From Candidatus Cloacimonadota bacterium (GTDB lineage: Bacteria > Cloacimonadota > Cloacimonadia > Cloacimonadales > TCS61): a stretch of DNA of 64,000 nucleotides. The stretch covers positions 4,719 to 68,718 of the forward strand of contig DAOUTP010000001.1 of the NCBI GenBank assembly GCA_030626645.1. Reading direction: 5' to 3'. Of the stretch, positions 21,316 through 63,582 are shown one piece after another; position 1 is the first letter of the stretch, and every line of letters begins with the position of its first letter. A program made the translations under genes and the position numbers. Under the pieces are notes generated by a model. It ran no database searches. It was given only the letters and a program-made list of their open reading frames with translations, and was not told the origin of the DNA.

Positions 21316-21331
21316 TCTAATAATATTTTTG

Positions 21332-21404
21332 AAGCGATGGAAGGATTTGAACCTCCGACCTTTAGGTTATGAGCCTAACGAGCTACCAACTGCTCCACAT
21401 CGCA
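21332..21404 (-). tRNA. tRNA with CAU anticodon (Met, or Ile2 if lysidinylated)
   Basis: The reverse complement folds as a cloverleaf: acceptor UGCGAUG/CAUCGCU (6 bp plus a U1-U72 mismatch); D arm GAGC-AGUUGGUA-GCUC; anticodon arm UUAGG-CUCAUAA-CCUAA; variable AGGUC; T arm GGAGG-UUCAAAU-CCUUC. No encoded CCA. Confidence 0.8.
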
Positions 21405-29957: not shown

Positions 29958-30027
29958 GTTTTTTGTATTTGTTTTTTCAACAGAAAAATAGTCCAGGAAA
30001 AGTACGACGAGCTGACGGACTAAGATA
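29958..30027 (-). promoter_or_regulatory. conserved upstream element, copy E1
   Basis: Minus-sense CTTATCTTAGTCCGTCAGCTCGTCG...CTATTTTTCTGTTGAAAAAACAAATACAAAAAAC, about 30 nt upstream of the terminase ATG. Homologous to E2-E4. Confidence 0.6.
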
Positions 30028-31619: not shown

Positions 31620-31706
31620 TTAAATTTATGGTTTTTTTATATTTGTTTTTTCAATAGAAAAATAGACTAAAAAAAGATCGATGAGCTGACGGACTAAGAT
31701 GAGTAA
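31620..31706 (-). promoter_or_regulatory. conserved upstream element, copy E2
   Basis: Minus-sense ACTCATCTTAGTCCGTCAGCTCATCGATCTTTTTTTAGTCTATTTTTCTATTGAAAAAACAAATATAAAAAAACCATAAATTTAA, near-identical to E3. Confidence 0.6.
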
Positions 31707-34132: not shown

Positions 34133-34251
34133 ATGTAATTACAATGTGATTACATTTATACGTATTAATTATATAAATTTATACGTATAAATGTAACATT
34201 TGTTACATTTTCGCACATTTTATACGTACTAACTGTATAATTTTATACGTA
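34133..34251. promoter_or_regulatory. operator/iteron cluster
   Basis: Four TTATACGTA boxes (34156-64, 34179-87, 34220-28, 34243-51, paired at 23-bp spacing). Also the palindromes ATGTAAT-N9-ATTACAT (34133-57) and AAATGTAACA-TT-TGTTACATTT (34189-34210). Confidence 0.6.
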
Positions 34252-36286: not shown

Positions 36287-36372
36287 ACTCATCTTAGTCC
36301 GTCAGCTCATCGATCTTTTTTTAGTGTATTTTTCTACTGAAAAAACAAATATAAAAAAACCATAAATTTAAC
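36287..36372 (+). promoter_or_regulatory. conserved upstream element, copy E3
   Basis: ACTCATCTTAGTCCGTCAGCTCATCGATCTTTTTTTAGTGTATTTTTCTACTGAAAAAACAAATATAAAAAAACCATAAATTTAAC, 33 nt before ATG 36405. Confidence 0.6.
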
Positions 36373-38672: not shown

Positions 38673-38740
38673 CGTAAAAAGGATACTACATTAGTATATG
38701 ATCTATAAAAAAATAGATCATATACAGTGTTATGCCCCAT

Positions 38741-38932
38741 TTAAGACCGCAAAGAGCGGATGGGCGATAATTTAACTATCCTGTACCCATTTATTGTAAT
38801 GTCCGTTTTTTTTAGGCGGCTAAATTGATATTCTAAAATATGCTTCTTAACTCCGATAAGTTTAGCAAGCGGAGGAACACTCCCGTATATGCCGGGAGTG
38901 TCAGTTTCTATGTGTCGTGTCCAAAATTCCAT
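38741..38932 (-). CDS. small DNA-binding-like protein (possible homing-endonuclease C-terminal remnant)
   Basis: 63 aa. IYGSVPPLAKLIGVKKHILEYQFSRLKK...INGYRI resembles the HTH/NUMOD-type tails of GIY-YIG/HNH homing enzymes. Weak. Confidence 0.4.
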   Translation of the reverse strand: MEFWTRHIETDTPGIYGSVPPLAKLIGVKKHILEYQFSRLKKTDITINGYRIVKLSPIRSLRS

Positions 38933-38933
38933 C

Positions 38934-39158
38934 TTATTTATTTCTTAATACTTTGCAGTTATCATATCCGTAATGTGATGCTACTGCATAATCAGATTCT
39001 TCAATGCCATATTCAAAAGCCTTTTCTTCTTCTAAATCGCAATTTTCTAAAAAGAAATCCATTATTTCTTCCTCAGTTGGGTATTCTTCGTTATTATCAT
39101 TCCACAATACATAAAAACTCTCGTTGTAATCTTCTAAGTTTAATTTTAAATTTGACAT
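38934..39158 (-). CDS. small acidic protein
   Basis: 74 aa, strongly acidic (EEYPTEEEIMDFFLENCDLEEE), upstream of 38741..38932 in the same unit. Confidence 0.5.
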   Translation of the reverse strand: MSNLKLNLEDYNESFYVLWNDNNEEYPTEEEIMDFFLENCDLEEEKAFEYGIEESDYAVASHYGYDNCKVLRNK

Positions 39159-39442
39159 CTTTTTTATTTTTAAATAATTACTTCGTTATAATTATAGTAC
39201 AAATATACGACCTTATATTGCTTTCTCAACACTGGAAAATAAAAGTTATTAACAATTTGATGGTTTTATATTGTTTTAAGAACGCAAAGGAAAAAACGGG
39301 GCATAACACTAAATATAGCCCATTTGGCTACAAAATTGGTCCCTGAATGACAAGTCGGTCAATGCCAAACGTGCCATATTTTTAACGTTGTACTCCGTAT
39401 ATTATTATTTTGCGAATATTTTGTATATTAAATAAATCATAT

Positions 39443-50311: not shown

Positions 50312-50506
50312 TTAGAAAGGTATTTTAATTAAATTTTTATTTCTGATTTCATCTACTATTAAAATAGGGAGTTCGGTTTTAATTTTATACTGAATTACTT
50401 GTCGAACAAATTTTGATTTATTTATACCATATTTTTCTAATTTCCCTAAATTATTTACCATTTCGACAGTCATTCTAAATCTTTGTATTTCAGTTAATTT
50501 ACTCAT
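50312..50506 (-). CDS. ribbon-helix-helix DNA-binding protein, paralogue A
   Basis: MSKLTEIQRFRMTVEMVNNLGKLEKYGINKSKFVRQVIQYKI has a beta-strand-helix-helix layout. The track ORF starts 13 codons early. The first 15 codons plus 35 nt upstream are identical to paralogue B. Confidence 0.65.
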   Translation of the reverse strand: MSKLTEIQRFRMTVEMVNNLGKLEKYGINKSKFVRQVIQYKIKTELPILIVDEIRNKNLIKIPF

Positions 50507-50541
50507 AAATGTCCTACAAAAGGTGTGTATATCTACTGTTA
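50462..50541. repeat. 80-bp exact repeat, copy A
   Basis: Identical to 59520-59599. It ends at the GTTA core (50538-50541). Confidence 0.95.
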
Positions 50542-51010
50542 GCATTAATACTACGTAGCGGATCTAAATATCACTATCATACTATCGTGTTTCCCTTTGT
50601 TTTTAGTTGAGTATTCACCTTTTGTATTATATCCCTTAAATGCTATCCTACCCTTTATAAATCTAATTTCAGCATTTGGTAACATAAGTTCGTGAAATTG
50701 TTTTGTGCCTGTTGCACTTGGTATTAATAGCACACAAGTATTTCCTTTTTGCCATTCCTCGTAAGCCTTTTGTATAAATTTTGGTTTATTAACTCTATCA
50801 TAAGGAGGGTTAATAAAATTAGATTTTCCCCACCCGCATTCAAGCCCATCAAATTTTGCATTTAAAGGGCAAGGATCAAAGTCAAAGGCAAACTCTTGGT
50901 TTAGTTCATTATATAAATATTCTGGGGTTTTCCAATGGTTACTATTTTCTAATCCGTCTCTATTTTTCATATCAATTTTTGTTTTTAATTAAACCGTACT
51001 AATGCTAACA
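50537..51010. repeat. IR-bracketed unit 1 (TGTTAGCATTA / TAATGCTAACA, 11 bp)
   Basis: Arms at 50537-50547 and 51000-51010 are perfect reverse complements. Cargo is the Dam-type MTase. Confidence 0.85.
50551..50970 (-). CDS. phage Dam-family N6-adenine DNA methyltransferase (PF05869-like)
   Basis: HWKTPEYLYNELNQEFAFDFDPCP...NFINPPYDR...CVLLIPSATGTKQF shows WxTP, D-P-C and intact NPPY motifs. Confidence 0.75.
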   Translation of the reverse strand: MKNRDGLENSNHWKTPEYLYNELNQEFAFDFDPCPLNAKFDGLECGWGKSNFINPPYDRVNKPKFIQKAYEEWQKGNTCVLLIPSATGTKQFHELMLPNAEIRFIKGRIAFKGYNTKGEYSTKNKGKHDSMIVIFRSAT

Positions 51011-51048
51011 ATATGTAACAGGCATTAAAACGACCTGTTACACAAACC

Positions 51049-51298
51049 GTTATGTGGCATTTACAATACGGTTAATATCATTATGGAAATCTAAAGCATC
51101 ATCAATATTCATTCCTAACTCTAATCCAAGTTCTGCTGATGTGCACGTGCAAAAAGGATAGTCTTTTTTTATTAATCCATTTGCAGCCTTAGCACACTTT
51201 ATTGACCATAATAAATACTCTTTACCTCTTTTTGCTTTTAGTAGTCTTAATAAGTTTTGTTTATTGTGGAGTATTACTTTTAAATAACGCCACATAAC
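51049..51298. repeat. IR-bracketed unit 2 (GTTATGTGGC / GCCACATAAC, 10 bp)
   Basis: Arms at 51049-51058 (overlapping the stop) and 51289-51298 (inside the track ORF; contains an in-frame ATG). Confidence 0.85.
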
Positions 51299-51352
51299 AA
51301 TAGATAAAATCCATTGCTTAAATTGTGCTAACTTGTTAGTTTTATGTTTCAT
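51050..51352 (-). CDS. hypothetical protein
   Basis: Track ORF 51050..51397. Plausible starts are ATG 51352 (MKHKTNK...) or ATG 51295 inside the IR arm (MWRYLKV...). Confidence 0.5.
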   Translation of the reverse strand: MKHKTNKLAQFKQWILSIVMWRYLKVILHNKQNLLRLLKAKRGKEYLLWSIKCAKAANGLIKKDYPFCTCTSAELGLELGMNIDDALDFHNDINRIVNAT

Positions 51353-51414
51353 ATCAATATTATTATAAGTTTGAAAAATTATAATTCTAAATCGCAACGT
51401 ATCTTATCAAGAAC

Positions 51415-51645
51415 GTTATAAACAATTAACCAACTATTATAGTAGTTAATTGGTCTTGATAGTCTAATTTTGCATTTATAATACACTTATTTTTATCATC
51501 AAATGCTTTAGAGTGCCTAACTCTACCTTCTTCTTTGTTAATGTTTGTTGTTTCTGTTTGCTTCCATTTGTGTTGATTTCCAAATGGTATTATTTTATAT
51601 TCAAAATATTTCCCAGTTAATTTCATAATTTTATCAGTTTATAAC
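51415..51645. repeat. IR-bracketed unit 3 (GTTATAAAC / GTTTATAAC, 9 bp)
   Basis: Arms at 51415-51423 and 51637-51645, lying 2 nt past the stop and 10 nt before the ATG of 51426..51626. Confidence 0.85.
51426..51626 (-). CDS. hypothetical small protein
   Basis: 66-aa ORF, cargo of unit 3. Confidence 0.55.
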   Translation of the reverse strand: MKLTGKYFEYKIIPFGNQHKWKQTETTNINKEEGRVRHSKAFDDKNKCIINAKLDYQDQLTTIIVG

Positions 51646-51727
51646 ATCAGCTCATAAATAATAGCCGATGAAGATTAATACTATATTTCAAAGTTTGTGG
51701 TACGGCTACTATTCATAGCTGAGTACC
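51646..51727. repeat. inter-unit linker, copy a
   Basis: ATCAGCTCATAAATAATAGCCGATG...GGCTACTATTCATAGCTGAGTACC. Homologous to 52110-52190, 60991-61109 and 62450-62564. Confidence 0.8.
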
Positions 51728-52109
51728 GTTATAAAACATTTGCCACCGCACTAATTCAAGTCTTTTTTGTGACTCATGTTCCCATCTGTAATATGTACTT
51801 TTTTATCTGATAATTCGTCACTAAATGAATTACCGAGAAATCCCATAAGCATTCCAATTTTTGTATCGTAATGTGGATGGCATTCTTCATTGTATCCCTC
51901 TTCATCTGCTTTTTTACATACTGCACTAAATGTTTCTCTAATTTCTTTAGGTTGTATAAAATCTGGTTTGCAACAACTAAAGTCAGGGCAGCATTCATCA
52001 TCTACCTTGTTGTGTATTGGATTTCCTTTCACCCATTCTTCCAGTTGGTTGTTGCTTCTTTCTTTGTAATTATTTCCTTTTAAAGCCATCGCTCAAAACG
52101 TTTTATAAC
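51728..52109. repeat. IR-bracketed unit 4 (GTTATAAAAC / GTTTTATAAC, 10 bp)
   Basis: Arms at 51728-51737 and 52100-52109, the latter 10 nt before the ATG of 51751..52089. Confidence 0.85.
51751..52089 (-). CDS. hypothetical Cys-rich protein
   Basis: 112 aa with ECCPDFSCCKPDF...ECHPH. Cargo of unit 4. The overlapping frame 51774..52001 was rejected. Confidence 0.6.
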   Translation of the reverse strand: MALKGNNYKERSNNQLEEWVKGNPIHNKVDDECCPDFSCCKPDFIQPKEIRETFSAVCKKADEEGYNEECHPHYDTKIGMLMGFLGNSFSDELSDKKVHITDGNMSHKKDLN

Positions 52110-52190
52110 AACGGCTCATATTTAATTGCCGTTGTAAATTTGTGCTTAGTTTTGAAAGTTTATAGTTCGGCAACTAAACATAGCCAAACC
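52110..52190. repeat. inter-unit linker, copy b
   Basis: AACGGCTCATATTTAATTGCCGTTG...GGCAACTAAACATAGCCAAACC. Confidence 0.8.
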
Positions 52191-52562
52191 GTTAGCAGCA
52201 ATATTATTTTTTGCCACCGCACATTTCAACAGCAACTACATGCCCTACCTCCGCTTCTTCGTATGTAGCATATTTGTCTTGGTATTGGTCATGTTCTCCG
52301 CCAAATATCATTGTCTCAAACAATATAGGAGTGCCACCGCCAAATGAGTGGTCTAATCCTAAAAATACTGTTGAAACATTTACCTCTTTTGAAATCTCAG
52401 TTTTTGCAATATGTCTTTCGGCTGTCTCAAACCACTTAGCCCATTCCATCATATCATCAACTGTCTTAATTGTTTTCCCTTCTAAAATGTAATTTTTCAT
52501 CTTGTTTGTATTTTAATGTTTATAATTCCTTCCCTCAAATAAAAAATAAAAAAGCTGGTAAC
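52191..52562. repeat. IR-bracketed unit 5 (GTTAGCAGC / GCTGGTAAC, 9 bp, 1 mismatch)
   Basis: Arms at 52191-52199 and 52554-52562. Confidence 0.65.
52204..52500 (-). CDS. conserved phage protein of unknown function
   Basis: 98 aa. STVFLGLDHSFGGGTPILFETMIFGG...YATYEEAEVGH is a pattern I recognise from many phage hypotheticals. No function known. Confidence 0.65.
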   Translation of the reverse strand: MKNYILEGKTIKTVDDMMEWAKWFETAERHIAKTEISKEVNVSTVFLGLDHSFGGGTPILFETMIFGGEHDQYQDKYATYEEAEVGHVVAVEMCGGKK

Positions 52563-52609
52563 ACGTTGTAAAATTCATTGCGAAAAGCAACGAAATCTTA
52601 CAACCATAC

Positions 52610-52874
52610 GTTATAGGGCATTTAAGAATCCACCCCAGTTGAAAATAATGGCTTGCCACATTTGCAACATACAACCGCATAATCTTCGTTTGCATAATCT
52701 TGATAATATCCACATTCATCACCATTATCATAATCAATATCTTCCGAAAATTCTTTATTGGTATTAATTTCTTCCATTCTTTTTTCTATACATTCAAAGC
52801 AGTAGTAGTTGTCTTCATCTTCCCAAAATATCCAATTTGCTAATTCCTTATTCATAATAAAAACGCCCTATAAC
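52610..52874. repeat. IR-bracketed unit 6 (GTTATAGGGC / GCCCTATAAC, 10 bp)
   Basis: Arms at 52610-52619 and 52865-52874, lying 2 nt past the stop and 9 nt before the ATG of 52622..52855. Confidence 0.85.
52622..52855 (-). CDS. small acidic zinc-ribbon-like protein
   Basis: 77 aa with CFEC...CCKCG. Cargo of unit 6. Confidence 0.6.
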   Translation of the reverse strand: MNKELANWIFWEDEDNYYCFECIEKRMEEINTNKEFSEDIDYDNGDECGYYQDYANEDYAVVCCKCGKPLFSTGVDS

Positions 52875-52984
52875 AATGTATAATAAGTCATTGCCTCTAA
52901 GGTCTTTGTTTAAAATTTGTGTTTAATTATTAGTTTTATTTTCATCCTTAATTTTTGTGATGGCAACGCTTCTTATACTAAGCG

Positions 52985-53368
52985 TTATGCACAATAGAAG
53001 TATCCACGCCCACTTAACAATCCAGTATCTTCACTGAATGTAGCTTCGGTAGTTATTGCACCCTTTAGTTCTTTAATCAGCTTTTGTAGCTTATAGTTAG
53101 TCCAGCCAAACCTTTTAAGTATTCCCTTTTTACACGGCAAAATATCAGCAGTATTCCAAGCGTAAACATATAAGCATAATTTTTGGTGGGCGTTTAATTC
53201 GTCATAGTTTATTTTGCCTTCATCTCTGATACTATCAATAAACTGCTCATTATGGAAGCTTGTGTAGTAAGGTTTGTCTTCCACTCTGCTCTTAAAATCT
53301 ACTGTACCTAACAACGTATCATACGCCATTGGCTTGCTGTTATTTGTAGTTTCGTTCTTTTTTGTCAT
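52985..53368 (-). CDS. hypothetical protein (leader MAYDTLLGTV related to the linker-encoded AINYEPLLG)
   Basis: 127-aa ORF followed by the hairpin AACGCTT-N8-AAGCGTT. Confidence 0.6.
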   Translation of the reverse strand: MTKKNETTNNSKPMAYDTLLGTVDFKSRVEDKPYYTSFHNEQFIDSIRDEGKINYDELNAHQKLCLYVYAWNTADILPCKKGILKRFGWTNYKLQKLIKELKGAITTEATFSEDTGLLSGRGYFYCA

Positions 53369-53380
53369 TGTATCAAGTAT

Positions 53381-53443
53381 TTAAATTTTTGAACATCCGA
53401 TTATAGGATTCCATGTTTCTGTTGCCCATTCAATTTTTGTCAT
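53381..53443 (-). pseudogene. 20-codon remnant of a DUF5131 (phage Gp37/Gp68) gene
   Basis: MTKIEWATETWNPIIGCSKI* equals the characteristic N-terminus (M..IEWT..TWNP..GC) but terminates after 20 codons. Confidence 0.55.
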
Positions 53444-53453
53444 ATCTTTTATA

Positions 53454-53795
53454 TTAAATTCTAAAACTTTTCAAAATTACTTTCAAATCACTAATAGACC
53501 TACATCCGGATAATGGTATCTCAAAATCCTTAACATATTGAATATGCCTTATAAGCAAAACGTTCTCTTTTTGCAATTGCCAATGATTACTAATTTTTTT
53601 ATATTGACAAATCACTTGTAGTATTAAATCTCCTTTTTGCTTAGTATAAATAGCAGTTTTCATATTTTGACTTCTACTCAAAAGTTTTGCTTTGTCCAAT
53701 TCATAAGAAATTCTAAATCCCATTTCTCTTAATTGTATTTCAGGAAATTTACTTTTGCGTTGTTCCATCATTAATATATTTACCAGAAGGATCAC
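53454..53795 (-). CDS. hypothetical protein
   Basis: 113-aa ORF. The start probably lies at an internal Met because of the 47-nt overlap upstream. Confidence 0.5.
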   Translation of the reverse strand: MILLVNILMMEQRKSKFPEIQLREMGFRISYELDKAKLLSRSQNMKTAIYTKQKGDLILQVICQYKKISNHWQLQKENVLLIRHIQYVKDFEIPLSGCRSISDLKVILKSFRI

Positions 53796-54528
53796 TTTTT
53801 AATACATCATCATTATTTTCAACAAAAATTTTTTTTTTGGTAAGAGGATCAACAAAAACAGTTGTACCTTTTGAATCAAACTTTTTACCTATAACATCAG
53901 GTTCGTTTTCAGGAACTTCGGTAGCAGAAAATTGTAATTGAATTGGGATCCATTTTTCATCTTTTTTCAGATGAATCTTTTCATAGGTTTTGTATCCTTT
54001 GATTGTTTTTGCTTTTTTTACCATTTTGATACAACTTTGAAAATTTTCATCATTAACTACTCTTTCATCTTCTTCAAAATTAAGTAATGTTTTGATTTTT
54101 TTATTATCAAATCTTCCCCTTGTCATTTTCAAAGAATCCAAAAGCATTGCCGGAAGTACTCCATCATTTTCCCCGATGAATTTTTCAAGAAAATCATAGG
54201 CCAGTATCATTTCTGCTGAATTGTATTCAACAACAGCATTGCTTTCAACCGACACTTTAATTGTCTCATTGAAGTTGTACCAGACATGATTCTTCATTTC
54301 CTGGTCATCAACCTTGTTTTCATCTAAAAATGCCTTATATGCCTTCTGTGTGCTTTCTATGACCATTTTTTTCAGGACACTAAGAGATGTTTCCACCTTT
54401 ACAGCTTGTTTGGCTATTTTTACTGCTTCAGTTTCTCTTACCTTTTCAAGTTTGGTAATTCTTTTGACTTCAACAGAGTTTCCTTTACTGTCTATCCACT
54501 CTGGGCCAGTTTGTTTCTTGATTTCCAT
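53749..54528 (-). CDS. hypothetical protein
   Basis: 259-aa ORF in the replication module. It loosely recalls DUF3164 proteins; not asserted. Confidence 0.65.
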   Translation of the reverse strand: MEIKKQTGPEWIDSKGNSVEVKRITKLEKVRETEAVKIAKQAVKVETSLSVLKKMVIESTQKAYKAFLDENKVDDQEMKNHVWYNFNETIKVSVESNAVVEYNSAEMILAYDFLEKFIGENDGVLPAMLLDSLKMTRGRFDNKKIKTLLNFEEDERVVNDENFQSCIKMVKKAKTIKGYKTYEKIHLKKDEKWIPIQLQFSATEVPENEPDVIGKKFDSKGTTVFVDPLTKKKIFVENNDDVLKSDPSGKYINDGTTQK

Positions 54529-58468: not shown

Positions 58469-59365
58469 TTATTGGCAAAAATATTTATGAACAGCCATAT
58501 TTTCTGCATTTTGTTTTTTTGAAATTCTGATATAATTCATAAAACCTTTCCATGTTGTATGCCCGGTTAACATTCTTACCATATTAGGATCCAATCCCGC
58601 TAAAACCATATTTGTTGCAGCACTCCTTCGTGCCGTATGGCTTGTAATAAGCTCATATTTGAGTTTAATGACATCTTTTTTACGTTTACCACCTCTGACC
58701 TCAGAAACAATGATTTTATCGTTGATGGAAGCCATTTCGCCTACACAACGTATTTTTTTAATAAATGTAGCAAGATTTTGAATTTTCAACTTTGAAAGAT
58801 CATAATCATATTTTTCTAAAATTTCCCGAACCATCCAATGAATAGGAATAATTACATGGCTTTGTGTTCTTTTGAAACCTTTGAATACATTTATTTTTAA
58901 AAAATCACCTTCCAAACTTTCAGGACGTATCTGAGTATAGTCTGATACCCGAAGTGTTGTGTGGGCACCAACCAAAAAAACATCTCTTATATGTTCTTCC
59001 TGGCCCGATAGATTTAATTCCCACATTCTTTCAAGTTCGACTGATGAAAGAACTATATGATCACAGTAAACCCAATTGAATTTGAATTCTTCATAGGGAT
59101 TTTTTAGTATTAAACCTTTTCTTATTGCTGACTTGATTATTTTTCTTAAATTAGAATGTTTTAATGAAATATAATTTGTTTTGTAGTCTTTATCTAATAA
59201 AAAATTATTGAAACTTTCTATGAATTCATAGTCAATATCCTTAAATTTAATATTTGAATTAAACTCATTTAATAACTTTAATGTTGTCATTTGAACATTA
59301 TAAGTAGTTAAGTTTAAGTTTCTGTTGTTTTTTAATTCGTTCTCGAAAAACTGGTTGAATGTCAT
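58469..59365 (-). CDS. tyrosine recombinase / integrase
   Basis: 298 aa with an N-terminal SAM-like core-binding region. The catalytic set is recognisable: TTLRVSD (Arg), HTARRS (His-x-x-Arg), LTGHTT (His), MNYIR (Tyr). Confidence 0.85.
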   Translation of the reverse strand: MTFNQFFENELKNNRNLNLTTYNVQMTTLKLLNEFNSNIKFKDIDYEFIESFNNFLLDKDYKTNYISLKHSNLRKIIKSAIRKGLILKNPYEEFKFNWVYCDHIVLSSVELERMWELNLSGQEEHIRDVFLVGAHTTLRVSDYTQIRPESLEGDFLKINVFKGFKRTQSHVIIPIHWMVREILEKYDYDLSKLKIQNLATFIKKIRCVGEMASINDKIIVSEVRGGKRKKDVIKLKYELITSHTARRSAATNMVLAGLDPNMVRMLTGHTTWKGFMNYIRISKKQNAENMAVHKYFCQ

Positions 59366-59369
59366 AATT

Positions 59370-59564
59370 TTAAAAAGGTATTTTTATTAAATTTTTCATT
59401 CTTTTTTCTTTTGCTAATAAAACAGAATAGTCTAAATTAATTTTTTCACGAATTGCCGTTCTTATAAATGTTGATTTTTTTATTCCAAATCTGGTTAAAT
59501 TGTTTAATTTTTCAACATCTTCGACAGTCATTCTAAATCTTTGTATTTCAGTTAATTTACTCAT
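59370..59564 (-). CDS. ribbon-helix-helix DNA-binding protein, paralogue B
   Basis: MSKLTEIQRFRMTVEDVEKLNNLTRFGIKKSTFIRTAIREKI. Lies 4 nt upstream of the integrase. Confidence 0.65.
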   Translation of the reverse strand: MSKLTEIQRFRMTVEDVEKLNNLTRFGIKKSTFIRTAIREKINLDYSVLLAKEKRMKNLIKIPF

Positions 59565-59599
59565 AAATGTCCTACAAAAGGTGTGTATATCTACTGTTA
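59520..59599. repeat. 80-bp exact repeat, copy B
   Basis: Identical to 50462-50541. It ends at the GTTA core (59596-59599). Confidence 0.95.
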
Positions 59600-60322: not shown

Positions 60323-60990
60323 GTTAGGCAAAATGTTTAGCGACACTCTGCTCATCAGTTTGGTTTATCGGCATTATTAATATTTCAATATCATTCATTG
60401 AGAATAAACTCATAGAGTTCGGTTCTTTTTGAGATAGTAAAATAATTGAATCACTCTTTATATAATTAGCAATAGCAACTATTTTACTTAGATACTTCTC
60501 TTTAAATCGTGATTTTTTAATATCAATGAAATGATTTTTATCATATATTTTTCTACCTGTTTTTATTACATGGTTTTTGCTCAATTTTTTATCGCCATTA
60601 CAAACAGGGCAATCAAAGTAATCAGTATATCCCTCATATTCCCATTCAACTTCACCATTTCCTTCACATTCTTTACAAGTGTAGTCGCTTTCTACATTTC
60701 TAAATTCCTCAATTTTCGGTATACTGGTAATAGCCTCTTTTAATTCTGCTATCTTTATAGTGTATTTTAATTGTTTTTTATCAGGCATTATTCTTGCAAT
60801 ACTTTCTCTAATACTTTCTTTTATTGGTTCGTAATCATTTATGACACATTTCTTTGGCACTTTAATTAAAGCGTGTCCATCGGTAGCATAAACATAGTCG
60901 TCAATAATAAATGGTTCAATCATCCATTCTCTGTACGTGTCAGTACTGGTGAATAACTTTACAATTTCGTCATAAAACACTTTGCCTAAC
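60323..60990. repeat. IR-bracketed unit 8 (GTTAGGCAAA / TTTGCCTAAC, 10 bp)
   Basis: Arms at 60323-60332 (overlapping the stop) and 60981-60990 (inside the ORF at codons PLLGKV). Confidence 0.85.
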
Positions 60991-61046
60991 AACGGCTCAT
61001 AATTAATAGCCTTAGTTTTGTCGGTATTTTTACTATCTTTTTTCAT
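60324..61046 (-). CDS. hypothetical protein with DnaJ-type zinc knuckle
   Basis: 240 aa with CKECEGNGEVEW...CPVCNGDKK. The first 19 codons are encoded by linker copy c. Confidence 0.65.
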   Translation of the reverse strand: MKKDSKNTDKTKAINYEPLLGKVFYDEIVKLFTSTDTYREWMIEPFIIDDYVYATDGHALIKVPKKCVINDYEPIKESIRESIARIMPDKKQLKYTIKIAELKEAITSIPKIEEFRNVESDYTCKECEGNGEVEWEYEGYTDYFDCPVCNGDKKLSKNHVIKTGRKIYDKNHFIDIKKSRFKEKYLSKIVAIANYIKSDSIILLSQKEPNSMSLFSMNDIEILIMPINQTDEQSVAKHFA

Positions 61047-61109
61047 ATCAAGTTTATTTATAAGTTGAAATATTTGTCATTTTAAGTGGCTACTAATCAT
61101 AGCCAAACC
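60991..61109. repeat. inter-unit linker, copy c (partly coding)
   Basis: AACGGCTCATAATTAATAGCCTTAG...GGCTACTAATCATAGCCAAACC. Confidence 0.8.
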
Positions 61110-61360
61110 GTTATAGCCAATTAAGGCTTAATGTCTGTGGTTTTTACGGTCTTGCATAAATTAACAATGCTAATACAGTCTCTGCAATCAACTTTTTCTT
61201 TGGTTCTAATTCCCTTATTTATATCAAGCCCCGGGTCACCAGCTGTCTCAAGCCCACACAAGGTATAATCATTACTTACTGCATCAACATGAACCAAATT
61301 ATCATATCCTGTTTTTATTTTAATATGGAGTGCCATTCTCTAAAATTAACTGGCTATAAC
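61110..61360. repeat. IR-bracketed unit 9 (GTTATAGCCA / TGGCTATAAC, 10 bp)
   Basis: Arms at 61110-61119 and 61351-61360, lying 1 nt past the stop and 14 nt before the ATG of 61121..61336. Confidence 0.85.
61121..61336 (-). CDS. small Cys-containing protein
   Basis: 71 aa with TLCG...CRDC. Cargo of unit 9. Confidence 0.55.
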   Translation of the reverse strand: MALHIKIKTGYDNLVHVDAVSNDYTLCGLETAGDPGLDINKGIRTKEKVDCRDCISIVNLCKTVKTTDIKP

Positions 61361-61478
61361 AATGTATATAAAAAATACAGGGTGTCAGCCTAATTTATGC
61401 AGTTATACCACTTTTTTAAATTCTGTGAGTATCAGGTAGGTTACCGCTTCTATCTCCTGTACTTTTCATATACTTAAC

Positions 61479-61736
61479 GTTAAGCACAAGCTACTTTTTG
61501 TCAATTAATGTAACAAATTGCTTACTGTTTTTCGTTCCAATAAAACCACCATATCCTTTAATATTCCATTTGTATTTAGGTTTTGGTAATGGGAATTTAA
61601 GTGTATCCCATTTAGCACCATTATTTGTGTCTGCAATAAAGTGGTTATCAGTAGTTATTCCGCAATTTGACCATCCATCAGGGTACTCTACTTGTATTGT
61701 TCTTTCTTTTCGTTTTGCAAACCGCCAGTGCTTAAC
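61479..61736. repeat. IR-bracketed unit 10 (GTTAAGCAC / GTGCTTAAC, 9 bp)
   Basis: Arms at 61479-61487 and 61728-61736 (inside the ORF at codons SVKH). Confidence 0.8.
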
Positions 61737-61790
61737 ACTAAATATAGCAAATTTGCTTCTGTTCTTTGGGTATTGTTCTTCGTTATTCAT
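61491..61790 (-). CDS. hypothetical protein
   Basis: 99-aa ORF. The N-terminal 19 codons (..KFAIFS) are encoded by the shared flank. Confidence 0.55.
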   Translation of the reverse strand: MNNEEQYPKNRSKFAIFSVKHWRFAKRKERTIQVEYPDGWSNCGITTDNHFIADTNNGAKWDTLKFPLPKPKYKWNIKGYGGFIGTKNSKQFVTLIDKK

Positions 61791-61850
61791 TTTGTATATA
61801 ATTTAAAAGTTTGTAATTTTTTTCTAAGGCAAACTTGCCATATTATTTCC

Positions 61851-61957
61851 GTTAGCGGTCAGTTTTTTATTTCTAAACCGCAGTATTTGCATATGAACTT
61901 ATCTCCTTTAGGTATTGCTGTTCTGGTCAGGCAGGAGCAAAAAACCGAACCGCTAAC
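61851..61957. repeat. IR pair 11 (GTTAGCGGT / ACCGCTAAC, 9 bp) enclosing only the last ~30 codons of an ORF
   Basis: Arms at 61851-61859 and 61949-61957. Confidence 0.7.
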
Positions 61958-62156: not shown

Positions 62157-62449
62157 GTTATGCCCCATAAGGCTATCTATCATATTCTTTAAAGAAATCA
62201 TCAACATCCATTTGCCCACCATCCTCAAAGTTCCCTTTTGTGGTGTTCAGAAACCTTTCAAGCTCTCTACGTATGTCATTTTTGTCAAGGTCAGTTTTTC
62301 CTTCACTCTTCAAATACTCTTTAAATTCATCTTTGCACTCCCAACATACATATCCTACACTTGGTACATAAATGTCACACATTATATTTTCGCATTCTTT
62401 TCTGCTACAGCTCATTACTCCCATGTTTTCTAAATTTACGGGGCATAAC
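62157..62449. repeat. IR-bracketed unit 12 (GTTATGCCCC / GGGGCATAAC, 10 bp)
   Basis: Arms at 62157-62166 and 62440-62449. Same arm sequence as the unit at 38726-39310 but different cargo. Confidence 0.85.
62173..62424 (-). CDS. small Cys-rich protein
   Basis: The track ORF begins at an ATG that is part of the IR arm. The likelier start is ATG 62424 (MGVMSCSRKECENIMCD...CWEC). Confidence 0.55.
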   Translation of the reverse strand: MGVMSCSRKECENIMCDIYVPSVGYVCWECKDEFKEYLKSEGKTDLDKNDIRRELERFLNTTKGNFEDGGQMDVDDFFKEYDR

Positions 62450-62564
62450 AACGGCTCATAAATAATAGCGGTTGTAGTGCTTATCCCAAGTTTATACTAT
62501 ATTTTTAATTTCGTTCATTAATCTAAATTCTGTGGTTTGTTTCCGCTACTATTCATAGCCCAAC
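62450..62564. repeat. inter-unit linker, copy d
   Basis: AACGGCTCATAAATAATAGCGGTTG...CGCTACTATTCATAGCCCAAC. Confidence 0.8.
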
Positions 62565-63022
62565 GTTACCCATAATACTACAAGTAACTTTCCATATCAG
62601 ATTTTACCTTGTCTAAATGGGTACTATTTTTTATTGTTTCTAATATTTTACCATCTTCAACTTTATAAAGAATAGCAAATAACTCTATCTTATCATTTTC
62701 AAACGAAAATACTGCAACGTAATCTTCTGTAATATCTCCACCTTTTGGAAAATCAAGTGATAAGTATATTCTTTTTGCACCGTTATTTTTATACTCGGCA
62801 AATCTTCTATAATAAGAAGCAACATCTCCACCTAATGCTAATGCGTTTATTTCAAACTTACTATCTTTTGTTTCTGCAAAAAGTTGAAATGGATAATGTC
62901 CGTAACATTCACTATCTTCTATAAAATCTACTTTTACCATTGTTTTTACAAATTCTTCTACTGTTTTCATTTTTATATAATTTTAAAGTTAATATTTCAA
63001 TTTAAACCGTACTATGGGTAAC
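62565..63022. repeat. IR-bracketed unit 13 (GTTACCCAT / ATGGGTAAC, 9 bp)
   Basis: Arms at 62565-62573 and 63014-63022. Cargo is 62578..62970. Confidence 0.8.
62578..62970 (-). CDS. hypothetical protein
   Basis: 130-aa ORF, cargo of unit 13. Confidence 0.65.
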   Translation of the reverse strand: MKTVEEFVKTMVKVDFIEDSECYGHYPFQLFAETKDSKFEINALALGGDVASYYRRFAEYKNNGAKRIYLSLDFPKGGDITEDYVAVFSFENDKIELFAILYKVEDGKILETIKNSTHLDKVKSDMESYL

Positions 63023-63098: not shown

Positions 63099-63518
63099 TT
63101 ACAACCACATTGAGTTATCTATTGCAGCTCTCCCACAAATAGAACAGGCTACACTACCACCCCTAACATTTTCAAAATGTTTCTCGTAATTTTCAGGAGT
63201 ATTCTCAACTCTATCACCATTTTCCAAAAACAATAAACTTAAATCTTCATTGCATTCATGGTCTGTCGGTTCGCCACCACACATTATAGCAGTAGCATTT
63301 CCGAGTTTTACTATTTTACAACCTTGTCTCATATATATGTAATTTACCATTTGCTTCAGAAATTTTATTATCATTTCCATTTCAAAATTTTCTGAAGCAA
63401 ATGATAAATAATCAACCGGATTTTCGTAATGATGTCGGTTTCTTTCAATATGATCTTTAAGATGACTAAATTTCACTGTATTATTATGCAATTTTTTCCA
63501 TTTACGTACTCCTTTCAT
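63099..63518 (-). CDS. hypothetical Cys-containing protein, first gene of the long minus operon
   Basis: 139-aa ORF (CGGEPTDHEC...CSICG) directly behind the TATCTTTG box. Confidence 0.65.
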   Translation of the reverse strand: MKGVRKWKKLHNNTVKFSHLKDHIERNRHHYENPVDYLSFASENFEMEMIIKFLKQMVNYIYMRQGCKIVKLGNATAIMCGGEPTDHECNEDLSLLFLENGDRVENTPENYEKHFENVRGGSVACSICGRAAIDNSMWL

Positions 63519-63532
63519 AACTTATTTTTCTG

Positions 63533-63540
63533 CAAAGATA
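63533..63540 (-). promoter_or_regulatory. -7 box TATCTTTG driving the 63.5-to-40 kb minus-strand genes
   Basis: Minus-sense TATTATCTTTGCAGAAAAATAAGTTATG. The box ends 14 nt before ATG 63518. Confidence 0.55.
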
Positions 63541-63582
63541 ATATAGATTTTGCAAAAAACAAGAAAATTTGCAAAATAATTC

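Follow-up and report, generated by a model that had tools for sequence, protein, structure and literature searches.

The long intergenic linkers that recur between small genes in a 64,000-nucleotide stretch of DNA from Candidatus Cloacimonadota bacterium (assembly GCA_030626645.1, contig DAOUTP010000001.1, positions 4,719 to 68,718; this whole stretch is referred to here as the window) belong to a real, strongly structured family of recombination sites, which is a variant of the attC-like sites borne by phages. Based upon the results presented here, the linker is probably the recombination site of a mobile gene cassette, functionally analogous to the attC site of integrons, in accessory-gene arrays of Bacteroidetes phages. 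A preliminary description of this DNA had suggested that the linker may be the attC-like part of a system of units, and this suggestion is borne out by its AAC and GTT ends, unpaired spacer, covarying stem and variable loop, and also by the cassette signature of the units and the homology breakpoints that fall between TAAC and the following G.

The window is a fragment of a phage genome, from a source contig of 70,956 bp, and the proteins that it encodes include a large terminase subunit, virion proteins, DnaB, a UvrD-nuclease fusion and DNA methylases. The Bacteroidetes homologues of its recombinase, together with promoter-like TAnnTTTG motifs read in the window, point to a host that is probably a member of the Bacteroidetes. 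All of the genes between 50.3 and 63.5 kb are on the minus strand, and long intergenic spacers are found in two runs of very small genes, viz. array 1 (~50.5–53.4 kb) and array 2 (~59.6–63.1 kb). The four linker copies noted earlier sit within these spacers at the places reported and, with their TAAC and GTTA ends included, they extend over positions 51642–51731 (copy a), 52106–52194 (copy b), 60987–61113 (copy c), and 62446–62568 (copy d), all in gene-sense orientation on the minus strand. A similarity search with a 14-kb region and two linkers against 50,697 phage records gave no match, and in an Rfam scan of the window only a tRNA was detected, with no Rfam family matching the linker.

The Conserved Blocks Form a Single Long-Range Stem

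Read in the gene-sense direction, the upstream gene is followed by TAAC, G(G)TTT, the block GGCTATGAWTAGTAGCC, an AT-rich segment of 30–90 nt, the block GGCTATTAWTTATGAGCC, GTT, GTTA, and then the downstream gene. The conservation of both blocks is far beyond chance, as GGCTATGAWTAGTAGCC has four matches vs. 0.10 expected and a covariance model of the family recovers the four copies with E values of 8e-17 to 4e-24. The 3′ block first quoted is conserved overall, but copy b deviates from it, reading GGCAACTAAACATAGCC. In copy c (105.7 bits, E 1.9e-21; arm-to-arm fold -8.1 kcal/mol), TAAC is followed on the minus strand by the spacer GGTTT, the 5′ arm GGCTATGATTAGTAGCC, a 76-nt loop that contains an ATG, the 3′ arm GGCTATTAATTAT[G]AGCC, GTT, and GTTA. 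Copy b (E 5.8e-19) has three stem pairs flipped relative to copy c, all of which are compensated. Copy a (E 8.4e-17) has CAGCT/AGCTG at the base of its stem, where the other copies have TGGCT/AGCCG, and copy d (E 3.6e-24) has GCGG/CCGC at the inner stem end vs. GCCG/CGGC in copy a (pair 31-43 is CG in 38 copies and GC in five).

The preliminary description had recognized two independent hairpins in the linker, but each of these corresponds to one of the arms of a single long-range stem (~18 bp). The two conserved blocks are imperfect reverse complements and they are paired in the minus-strand fold of copy a, which is one long stem (z -3.6). When 44 copies were aligned without gaps, 91.5% of the long stem together with TAAC/GTTA was found to be paired, and seven of its pairs have changed on both sides; these two-sided changes tell subtypes a–d, along with a small number of singletons, apart. 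The same substitutions unpair the local hairpins in 13–17 of the 44 copies at four positions. The compensatory pair previously claimed for the first hairpin is real (AU in 33 and UA in nine copies). RNAalifold also predicts the long stem unaided, giving 18 pairs, five of them compensatory, and a bulged G for 23 full-length copies.

The copies in the 44-copy alignment came from scans of metagenome and viral contigs with a degenerate pattern of 24 nt, which detected 68 loci representing 62 distinct copies. Because this pattern fixes most of the 3′ arm, a covariance model was built and then searched against all collected contigs. It detected 128 sites (110 distinct), about half of which were never picked by the pattern, and these sites form same-strand arrays with a spacing of 300–700 nt. 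The covariation check proposed earlier, when carried out on the 110 distinct sites, showed compensatory changes in 17 of the 18 pairs, with 95% of the cells paired. The covariation score was 0.549 vs. at most 0.084 when the partners were slid, and none of 500 shuffles reached this value. The family is thus not limited to four copies, as had been supposed, since at least eight sites are present in the window alone. When the 24-nt pattern was searched in 185,579 species genomes, a single match was found, in a Bacteroidetes genome assembled from a metagenome (on a contig of 6.8 kb), and hence at this stringency the linkers are not a family of host chromosomal attC sites.

Two stem pairs remain G.T wobbles in more than 90% of the 110 model-fitted sites, due to which, in 98 of 105 sites, the more favorable fold is that of the sense strand and not of its complement. 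The sites begin with TAAC in 87/105 and end with GTTA in 99/105 cases. In the linker family, the unpaired spacer is 4–6 nt on the 5′ side vs. 2–3 nt on the 3′ side, and a bulged G is present in the 3′ arm four pairs from the base of the stem. The AT-rich loop varies from 4 to 138 nt (median 72) and the sites from 32 to 188 nt (median 122 for the 110 aligned matches, the shortest of which are clipped by contig ends). According to these structural predictions, a site can fold on the gene-sense strand into TAAC, a spacer of 4–6 nt, a stem of ~18 bp with imperfect pairing, an AT-rich loop, and (T)TGTTA.

Inverted Arms That Are Specific for Each Cassette Unit

Each gene neighboring a linker is bracketed by GTTA plus six bases on one side and by six bases plus TAAC on the other, and the six variable bases are specific for the unit. 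The reverse complement of the GTTA+6 arm was found 150–660 nt downstream in 41 of 50 units (permutation mean 5.3), and 20 of the matches were perfect over 10 nt vs. 0.33 expected. The possibility that these arms are terminal repeats of the linker itself was rejected, since arms facing each other across one linker pair just 45% of the time (44 copies). Within the window, all on the minus strand, the unit containing the cargo of copy c (60323–60990) has perfect 10-nt inverted arms, GTTAGGCAAA ... TTTGCCTAAC, and together with its linker it constitutes a cassette at 60323–61109. Inverted arms also bracket the units downstream of copy d (62157–62449; GTTATGCCCC ... GGGGCATAAC), copy b (51728–52109; GTTATAAAAC ... 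GTTTTATAAC), and, with one mismatch, copy a (51415–51645; GTTATAAACT ... TGTTTATAAC). The last cassette of array 1 (50538–51009; GTTAGCATTA ... TAATGCTAAC) encodes a phage N6-adenine methyltransferase (TIGR01712, 2.7e-12).

A corresponding relation is known from integrons, in which the core that opens a cassette complements the inverse core belonging to that cassette's attC site. The unit arms described here show this same relation, the far-end core of a cassette being complementary to the inverse core of its site. DNA methyltransferases of the N6A, C5, and N6/N4 types are a recurrent cargo (window 50551–50970; contig L013, 3473–4384; contig L045, 3257–4285), in agreement with the remark of Qi et al. 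(2023) on phage cassettes rich in methylases. An isolated cassette is also present within the plus-strand gene block of the window (38680–39390). It has the arms GTTATGCCCC ... GGGGCATAAC (38729–39307) and attC-like hairpins on both sides, and its arm of six variable bases is the same as that of the d-type cassettes.

Movement of the Linker With Its Downstream Gene

Identical modules of linker and gene occur in different contexts, with breakpoints between TAAC and G. One module of 351 nt, in which a c-type linker precedes a gene and the arm GCACATAAC, is 100% identical in the contigs L005, L006, and L066, the flanks of which differ. The identity begins right after one TAAC and stops right after the next, and the linkers that follow in L066 and L005 are unrelated. 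Overall, 51 of 115 homology breakpoints lie no more than 5 nt from a YAACR/YGTTR core vs. 15.9 expected. In addition, two pairs of contigs differ by a single cassette: L013 contains 1057 nt that are absent from L065 (a short attC-like hairpin, a C5 methylase, and an arm), and L066 contains 771 nt that are absent from L019. Only TAACG or AACGTT is in common at these junctions, and homologous exchange within shared linkers cannot yield junctions of this kind.

The direction in which the cassette should be read is indicated by near-identical pairs of sites on different contigs. The downstream gene alone was in common in 25 such pairs and the upstream gene alone in none, while 127 pairs have neither flank in common. 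The inserted segments also parse only as linker, gene, and arm. Based upon this polarity and the parsing of the insertions, the cassette consists of the hairpin followed by the gene along the direction of transcription, with the point of exchange at the 5′ TAAC of the sense strand. For 88 of 96 sites, an open reading frame (ORF) starts at the 3′ end of the site and on its strand, and a search for mixed orientation among 215 contig pairs with shared sequence found none. The near-identical sites by unrelated genes also provide a compact case for examining how a gene acquires an attC site.

A Translation Start and Leader Encoded Within the Site

The preliminary description proposed that the same leader had been placed in front of unrelated cargos, and this holds for all 19 distinct c-type copies, each of which has an in-frame ATG leader ending in AINYEPLL. 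In all of them the ATG lies in the loop, in frame with GCT ATT AAT TAT GAG CCG TTG TTA. The leader is short (15–23 codons) and hydrophilic. Except where the contig ends first, all of the c-type reading frames extend over 47–220 codons, leading into no fewer than 13 unrelated proteins. Of the four window copies, c alone is coding, as stated earlier; 20 leader codons of ORF 60324–61046, encoding MKKDSKNTDKTKAINYEPLL, occupy positions 61046–60987 on the minus strand, wholly inside the linker and ending at its GTTA. The protein family PHROG 20807 aligns to the cargo of copy c only from residue 27, past the leader. The presence of the leader in frame in all 19 copies and this alignment indicate that it is real and part of the site. 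The last eight leader residues (AINYEPLL) are imposed by the 3′ arm and, as the site is upstream of its own gene, the loop also carries a translation start.

The other three window copies had been viewed as decayed versions of this coding segment. However, the 24 nt conserved in them are the 3′ stem arm, which covaries with the 5′ one, and the reading frames of types a and b always stop at a TAA directly after the conserved block, while type d varies. The conserved nucleotides of a, b, and d are therefore explained by the stem and not by decay. The only true decayed copy is at 53309–53424 (minus strand; model E 0.019), at the far end of array 1. This c-type site has kept its leader MTKKNETTNNSKPMAYDTLL but has lost its 5′ arm and TAAC. 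ORF 52985–53368 does start with a related leader, as had been noted. The sequence TATGATACGTTGTTA matches here with two mismatches, the leader being compared with that of contig L015. The decayed site is abutted by a truncated gene start (MTKIEWATETWNPIIGCSKI followed by a stop; ~53380–53440, minus strand), the gene being DUF5131-like.

Proposed Mechanism and Candidate Recombinase

The above observations are consistent with a mechanism in which the sense strand would fold when the DNA becomes single-stranded, and a site-specific recombinase would cut in the 5′ TAAC and exchange strands between two folded sites, so that cassettes of linker plus gene could be excised or inserted. The inverted arms may represent the two halves of the hairpin base in the excised circle. 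In the c subtype, the loop of the site supplies the ATG and a leader fused to the downstream gene.

The catalyst could be either a host enzyme or the 298-amino-acid tyrosine recombinase encoded beside array 2 (58469–59365, minus strand), a candidate enzyme with matches to Pfam SAM_5 and Phage_integrase that is not an IntI. Its homologues are site-specific integrases of Bacteroidetes of the IntDOT-like kind (identity ≤38%); relatives were sought in viral contigs and none were found. A tblastn search with the recombinase, DnaB, the ribbon-helix-helix (RHH) protein described below, and other proteins against all fetched loci gave one weak match only, to UvrD. Of its shorter homologues, two were looked up, one in contig L070 by tail-fiber-like genes (Collar, Gp10_C) and the other in L071/L072 by large unannotated proteins. 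Contig L070 (49 kb) represents a Mu-like phage with an rve transposase, a MuB-like ATPase, and DUF3164, and the homologue lies beside its tail-fiber genes.

Array 2 is followed directly by an RHH-like gene for a protein of 64 amino acids (59370–59564, minus strand), a paralogue of which (50312–50506; 59% amino acid identity) follows array 1. The gene has been duplicated together with 33 nt upstream of it (50312–50541 and 59370–59599; repeat D1, 82% nucleotide identity). The junction of array 2 with this gene, GGTGTGTATATCTACTGTTA (59580–59599, plus strand), is identical to the sequence at the end of array 1 (50522–50541; two exact matches, none expected), and it would be a candidate primary insertion (attI-like) site. 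A junction 25-mer and the RHH protein had no relatives in viral contigs. The order on the sense strand is cassettes, TAAC, the identical 20-mer, the RHH gene, and then, for array 2, the recombinase in sense orientation. By analogy, this layout of array, junction, and recombinase would mirror that of an integron viewed along its bottom strand, with the difference that here this strand also carries the cassette genes.

A broader proposal, to which we give slightly less than even weight, is that these sites constitute a phage-specific platform for cassette exchange that works without IntI, in which hairpin-plus-gene cassettes of marine Bacteroidetes phages are cut at the sense-strand TAAC by a non-integron recombinase and the site doubles as a translation start and, in one subtype, as a leader. 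The enzyme in this proposal would be a short IntDOT/Xer-like phage enzyme with an RHH partner or a host enzyme. If correct, this would be a second integron-like system, either independently built or anciently diverged, and phages, not only bacteria, would run integron-style exchange of small accessory genes without a canonical integrase; the accessory cargo at stake includes DNA methylases and zinc-ribbon proteins of unknown role. As the site is upstream of the gene and can encode its start, recombination would be tied to expression in a manner not described for integrons. There are also practical effects on gene calling (starts inside linkers), on assembly (breaks or mis-joins at the repeats), and on the calling of MITEs (miniature inverted-repeat transposable elements) or attC clusters in viromes.

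The same phage is found in the Logan assembly of SRR22839553 (L008, L075, and L076) as short contigs that end in the RHH duplicate and the repeated linker, and these contigs show that the fragmentation was caused by such repeats. Exact-protein look-ups returned the same phage only, likewise as short contigs broken at repeats.

Comparison With Integrons, Phage attC Sites, and Other Modules

Integron attC sites (59-base elements) include homogeneous families, such as the Vibrio cholerae repeats (VCRs) of sedentary chromosomal integrons. The sites described here resemble attC sites in their AAC ... GTT ends, unpaired spacer, imperfect stem (with a bulged base in about half of the sites), variable loop, and length of ~50–190 nt, and they resemble the VCRs in that near-identical sites are present beside unrelated genes. 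Of the features by which attC sites are recognized, a covarying stem, an unpaired spacer and variable loop (expected length ~57–141 nt), and the cassette signature were found. In contrast to integrons, where the site is 3′ of an ORF that lies opposite to the recombining bottom strand, the genes here are on the folding strand and the site precedes the gene (25 pairs vs. 0; 88/96 sites) and may carry its start codon. Further differences are that no IntI is present, that the complementary arms are 9–14 nt long vs. 7, and that the constant asymmetry consists of G.T wobbles instead of two extrahelical bases, with the RYYY/RRRY consensus not kept.

Among phages, clusters of attC sites lacking an integron integrase (CALINs) have been described in virulent phages, and six such sites were tested with IntI1 (Qi et al., 2023; PMC9892861). 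One of these, P12002L_attC1 from Polaribacter phage P12002L, in which only two sites were called, was identified as an attC site by HattCI (PMC9892861). In its build, this site (TGCTAACGGCTACGG...GCCATTGTTAGGC) is the same as those described here. An intergenic site of P12002L has TAACGG ... (A/C)TTGTTAGGC ends and an imperfect stem, as do the sites here, and its intergenic regions have the same ends and, as read from those sequences, near-complementary arms; the strand apparently given as bottom in the authors' primer table is the gene-sense strand. Like the window phage, P12002L has a Flavobacteriia-type host and small cargos that include DNA methyltransferases, and no integrase is present in it. 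However, our family covariance model gave no match in P12002L at E < 0.001. What was reported earlier (PMC9892861) includes neither the present sequence family and its covariation nor the arms of the units, the insertions of cassettes, the link between site and downstream gene, or a leader encoded in the site, and in the literature no description was found of the linker family, its gene-sense polarity, or site-encoded leaders.

The promoter-early stem-loop elements (PeSLs) of T4-type phages consist of an early promoter and a terminator stem-loop and are exchanged by homology (PMC2839356, PMC4122927). The linkers are similar to PeSLs in being repeated intergenic modules by small variable phage genes that are tied to gene shuffling, but they differ in that no promoter or terminator signal was found, the stem extends from one end of the element to the other, and site-specific breakpoints are seen. 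Promoter-like sites (78 vs. 79.2 expected, using a consensus for sigma-70 and not for Bacteroidetes) and terminator-like sites (6 vs. 4.5 expected; the four copies have none, and no T-tract follows the stem) show no excess, and hence the reading of the linker as a promoter or terminator was rejected. Inspection of the aligned linker copies by eye, with no scan made, also revealed no conserved TAnnTTTG.

MITEs have also been catalogued in viral genomes (PMC11602168), and automatic MITE finders would probably flag the linkers. Similar to MITEs, IS200/IS605 elements, and the repetitive extragenic palindromes with their associated transposases (REP/RAYT), the linker is a strand-specific imperfect hairpin next to a fixed tetranucleotide. 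Unlike all of these, it has no target duplication and no transposase; each gene has a single hairpin, together with which it moves.

Contrary Evidence and Alternative Explanations

A number of observations weigh against the interpretation of the linker as a cassette recombination site. The closest published relative, P12002L_attC1, was the only one of the six tested sites to fail to recombine with IntI1 (PMC9892861). No integron integrase is present at the window arrays and the sole recombinase nearby is IntDOT/Xer-like; it scores 18.5 bits on TIGR02249 (IntI) vs. a cut-off of 265, its best weak matches being XerD and XerC. As neither of the two shorter homologues that were looked up is next to an array, they offer no co-occurrence support; the other contigs that were examined showed no recombinase close to their arrays, and none is annotated in P12002L. 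Although AAC and GTT are nearly invariant, the RYYY/RRRY positions are off the attC consensus (e.g., TATAAC, GGTAAC / GTTATAA, GTTATGC). The bulged G is present in just 54 of the 110 sites, with no second extrahelical T, and its role as a general strand marker, which we had considered, was dropped as it is absent from half of the wider set. An a- or b-type linker, including the 5′ untranslated region (UTR) up to the ATG, is common to many different genes, which simple cassette movement fails to explain. No circular intermediate or recombination event was observed, and long-range linkage in metagenome contigs may be chimeric at repeats, although the short-range junctions are unaffected by this. 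Lastly, the 44-copy alignment was gathered by the pattern that fixes most of the 3′ arm, and that of the 110 sites was fitted to the model and is hence biased toward structure; despite the latter, the stem is secure due to the size of the effect and its independent prediction by RNAalifold.

Of the other explanations, each of which fails on the arms, breakpoints, polarity, or orientation data, the one that fares best, though we consider it unlikely, is that the linkers are conserved regulatory modules (terminator/promoter) that act as patches of homology for ordinary or RecT-type recombination, without any site-specific enzyme, in the manner of PeSLs (PMC2839356, PMC4122927). The near-identical linkers by unrelated genes, with 127 pairs of sites sharing neither flank, are in its favor, as are mosaic linkers, of which L024 (an a-type 5′ half with a b-type 3′ half) and L013 and L065 (a b-type body with an a-type 5′ UTR) are examples, and RecT and helicases are encoded near the arrays. 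However, exchange through such patches leaves unexplained the unit-specific inverted arms, the breakpoints directly after TAAC that precede unrelated next linkers, and the insertions of one cassette bounded by only 5–7 shared bases, and no excess of terminator-like or sigma-70-like sites, nor a T-tract after the stem, was seen.

It is a little less probable again that the stem has been selected in RNA, as an intergenic hairpin of a polycistronic transcript with a role in processing, stability, or translation control, and that mobility of the DNA is secondary. The structure is on the transcribed sense strand in 98/105 sites, its two G.U positions stay wobbles in more than 90% of sites, and a start codon is in or just after the hairpin; yet the arms, TAAC breakpoints, and cassette insertions find no explanation in an RNA role, and no Rfam family matches. 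An RNA role could, however, possibly exist alongside that in DNA.

Strand-specific hairpins by a fixed tetranucleotide are also reminiscent of IS608, and the long imperfect terminal inverted repeats, length of 90–130 nt, many copies, and intergenic location of the linker could suggest a small non-autonomous transposable element (a MITE or a palindromic element of the IS200/IS605 type) inserted between genes. We regard this as very improbable, as target sites are not duplicated, the flanks (TAAC/GTTA) are inverted and not direct, the linker moves with the downstream gene (25 vs. 0), the insertions consist of linker plus gene, each unit has one hairpin instead of two subterminal ones, and no transposase is present among the scanned proteins.

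There is very little likelihood that the similarity reflects decayed paralogous coding sequence, an N-terminal exon that members of an old gene family have in common, for although the c-type leader is recurrent and lies in an ORF and one degraded copy exists (53309–53424), the conserved block co-varies with a non-coding partner 60–100 nt upstream, which already contradicts such an origin, the a and b types always end at TAA after the block, and within the leader little conservation is seen in the variable part, whereas the stem-determined part does not vary. It is equally improbable that the 9–14-nt inverted repeats flanking each gene make it an on/off segment inverted by the tyrosine recombinase in a shufflon-like manner, as the shorter recombinase homologue by tail-fiber-like genes of another phage (L070) might suggest, since none of the 215 contig pairs has mixed orientation and the gene is on the same strand in 88/96 sites.

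Additional Sites and Other Features of the Window

Besides the four linkers, the covariance model detected in the window four further full-length sites (E 3e-9 to 1e-6) and some weaker ones, all on the minus strand and inside the two small-gene stretches; a scan for arm pairing that is independent of the model ranks the same places highest. The site at 51295–51418 (E 3e-9) has an in-frame leader, MKHKTNKLAQFKQWILSIV, that continues into the cassette 51049–51298. The other three are attC-like sites at 52871–52987 (E 1.2e-7; fold -9.1 kcal/mol), with the 3′ end TATACATTGTTA, 61357–61482 (E 1.1e-7; -8.8 kcal/mol), and 61733–61854 (E 1.1e-6; -8.3 kcal/mol). Two short attC-like hairpins are also on the minus strand: one of 55 nt with TAAC/GTTA ends (52559–52613; -8.2 kcal/mol, E 0.34), a near relative of which is the linker of the inserted methylase cassette in contig L013, and one of 47 nt (51006–51052; -7.3 kcal/mol, E 0.1).

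A promoter motif of the Bacteroidetes -7 type, TATCTTTG, is located at ~63525–63545 (minus strand), just upstream of ORF 63099–63518, from where it would drive array 2 and on toward the recombinase and DnaB; similar motifs are present near 24.30, 33.81, 34.85, 39.45, 43.24, and 44.05 kb. A tRNA-Met (CAT) is encoded at 21331–21404 (minus strand), between the structural block and the plus-strand block, and a weak match to DUF3164 at 53749–54528 scores 19.8 bits, under the Pfam cut-off of 23.7. A second repeat of ~90–110 nt (D3 and D5, 82% identity), which is unrelated to the linker, has the core CTTAGTCCGTCAGCTC[AG]TCG. It is intergenic and found on both strands, at 30005–30024 (-), 31679–31698 (-), 36293–36312 (+), and ~37712 (+), and it may represent another regulatory or terminator module. 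Lastly, in the divergent intergenic region at 33.8–34.3 kb, the sequence TTTATACGTA occurs five times within 100 nt (34155–34251) vs. 0.21 expected, an arrangement that resembles the operator array of a regulatory switch.

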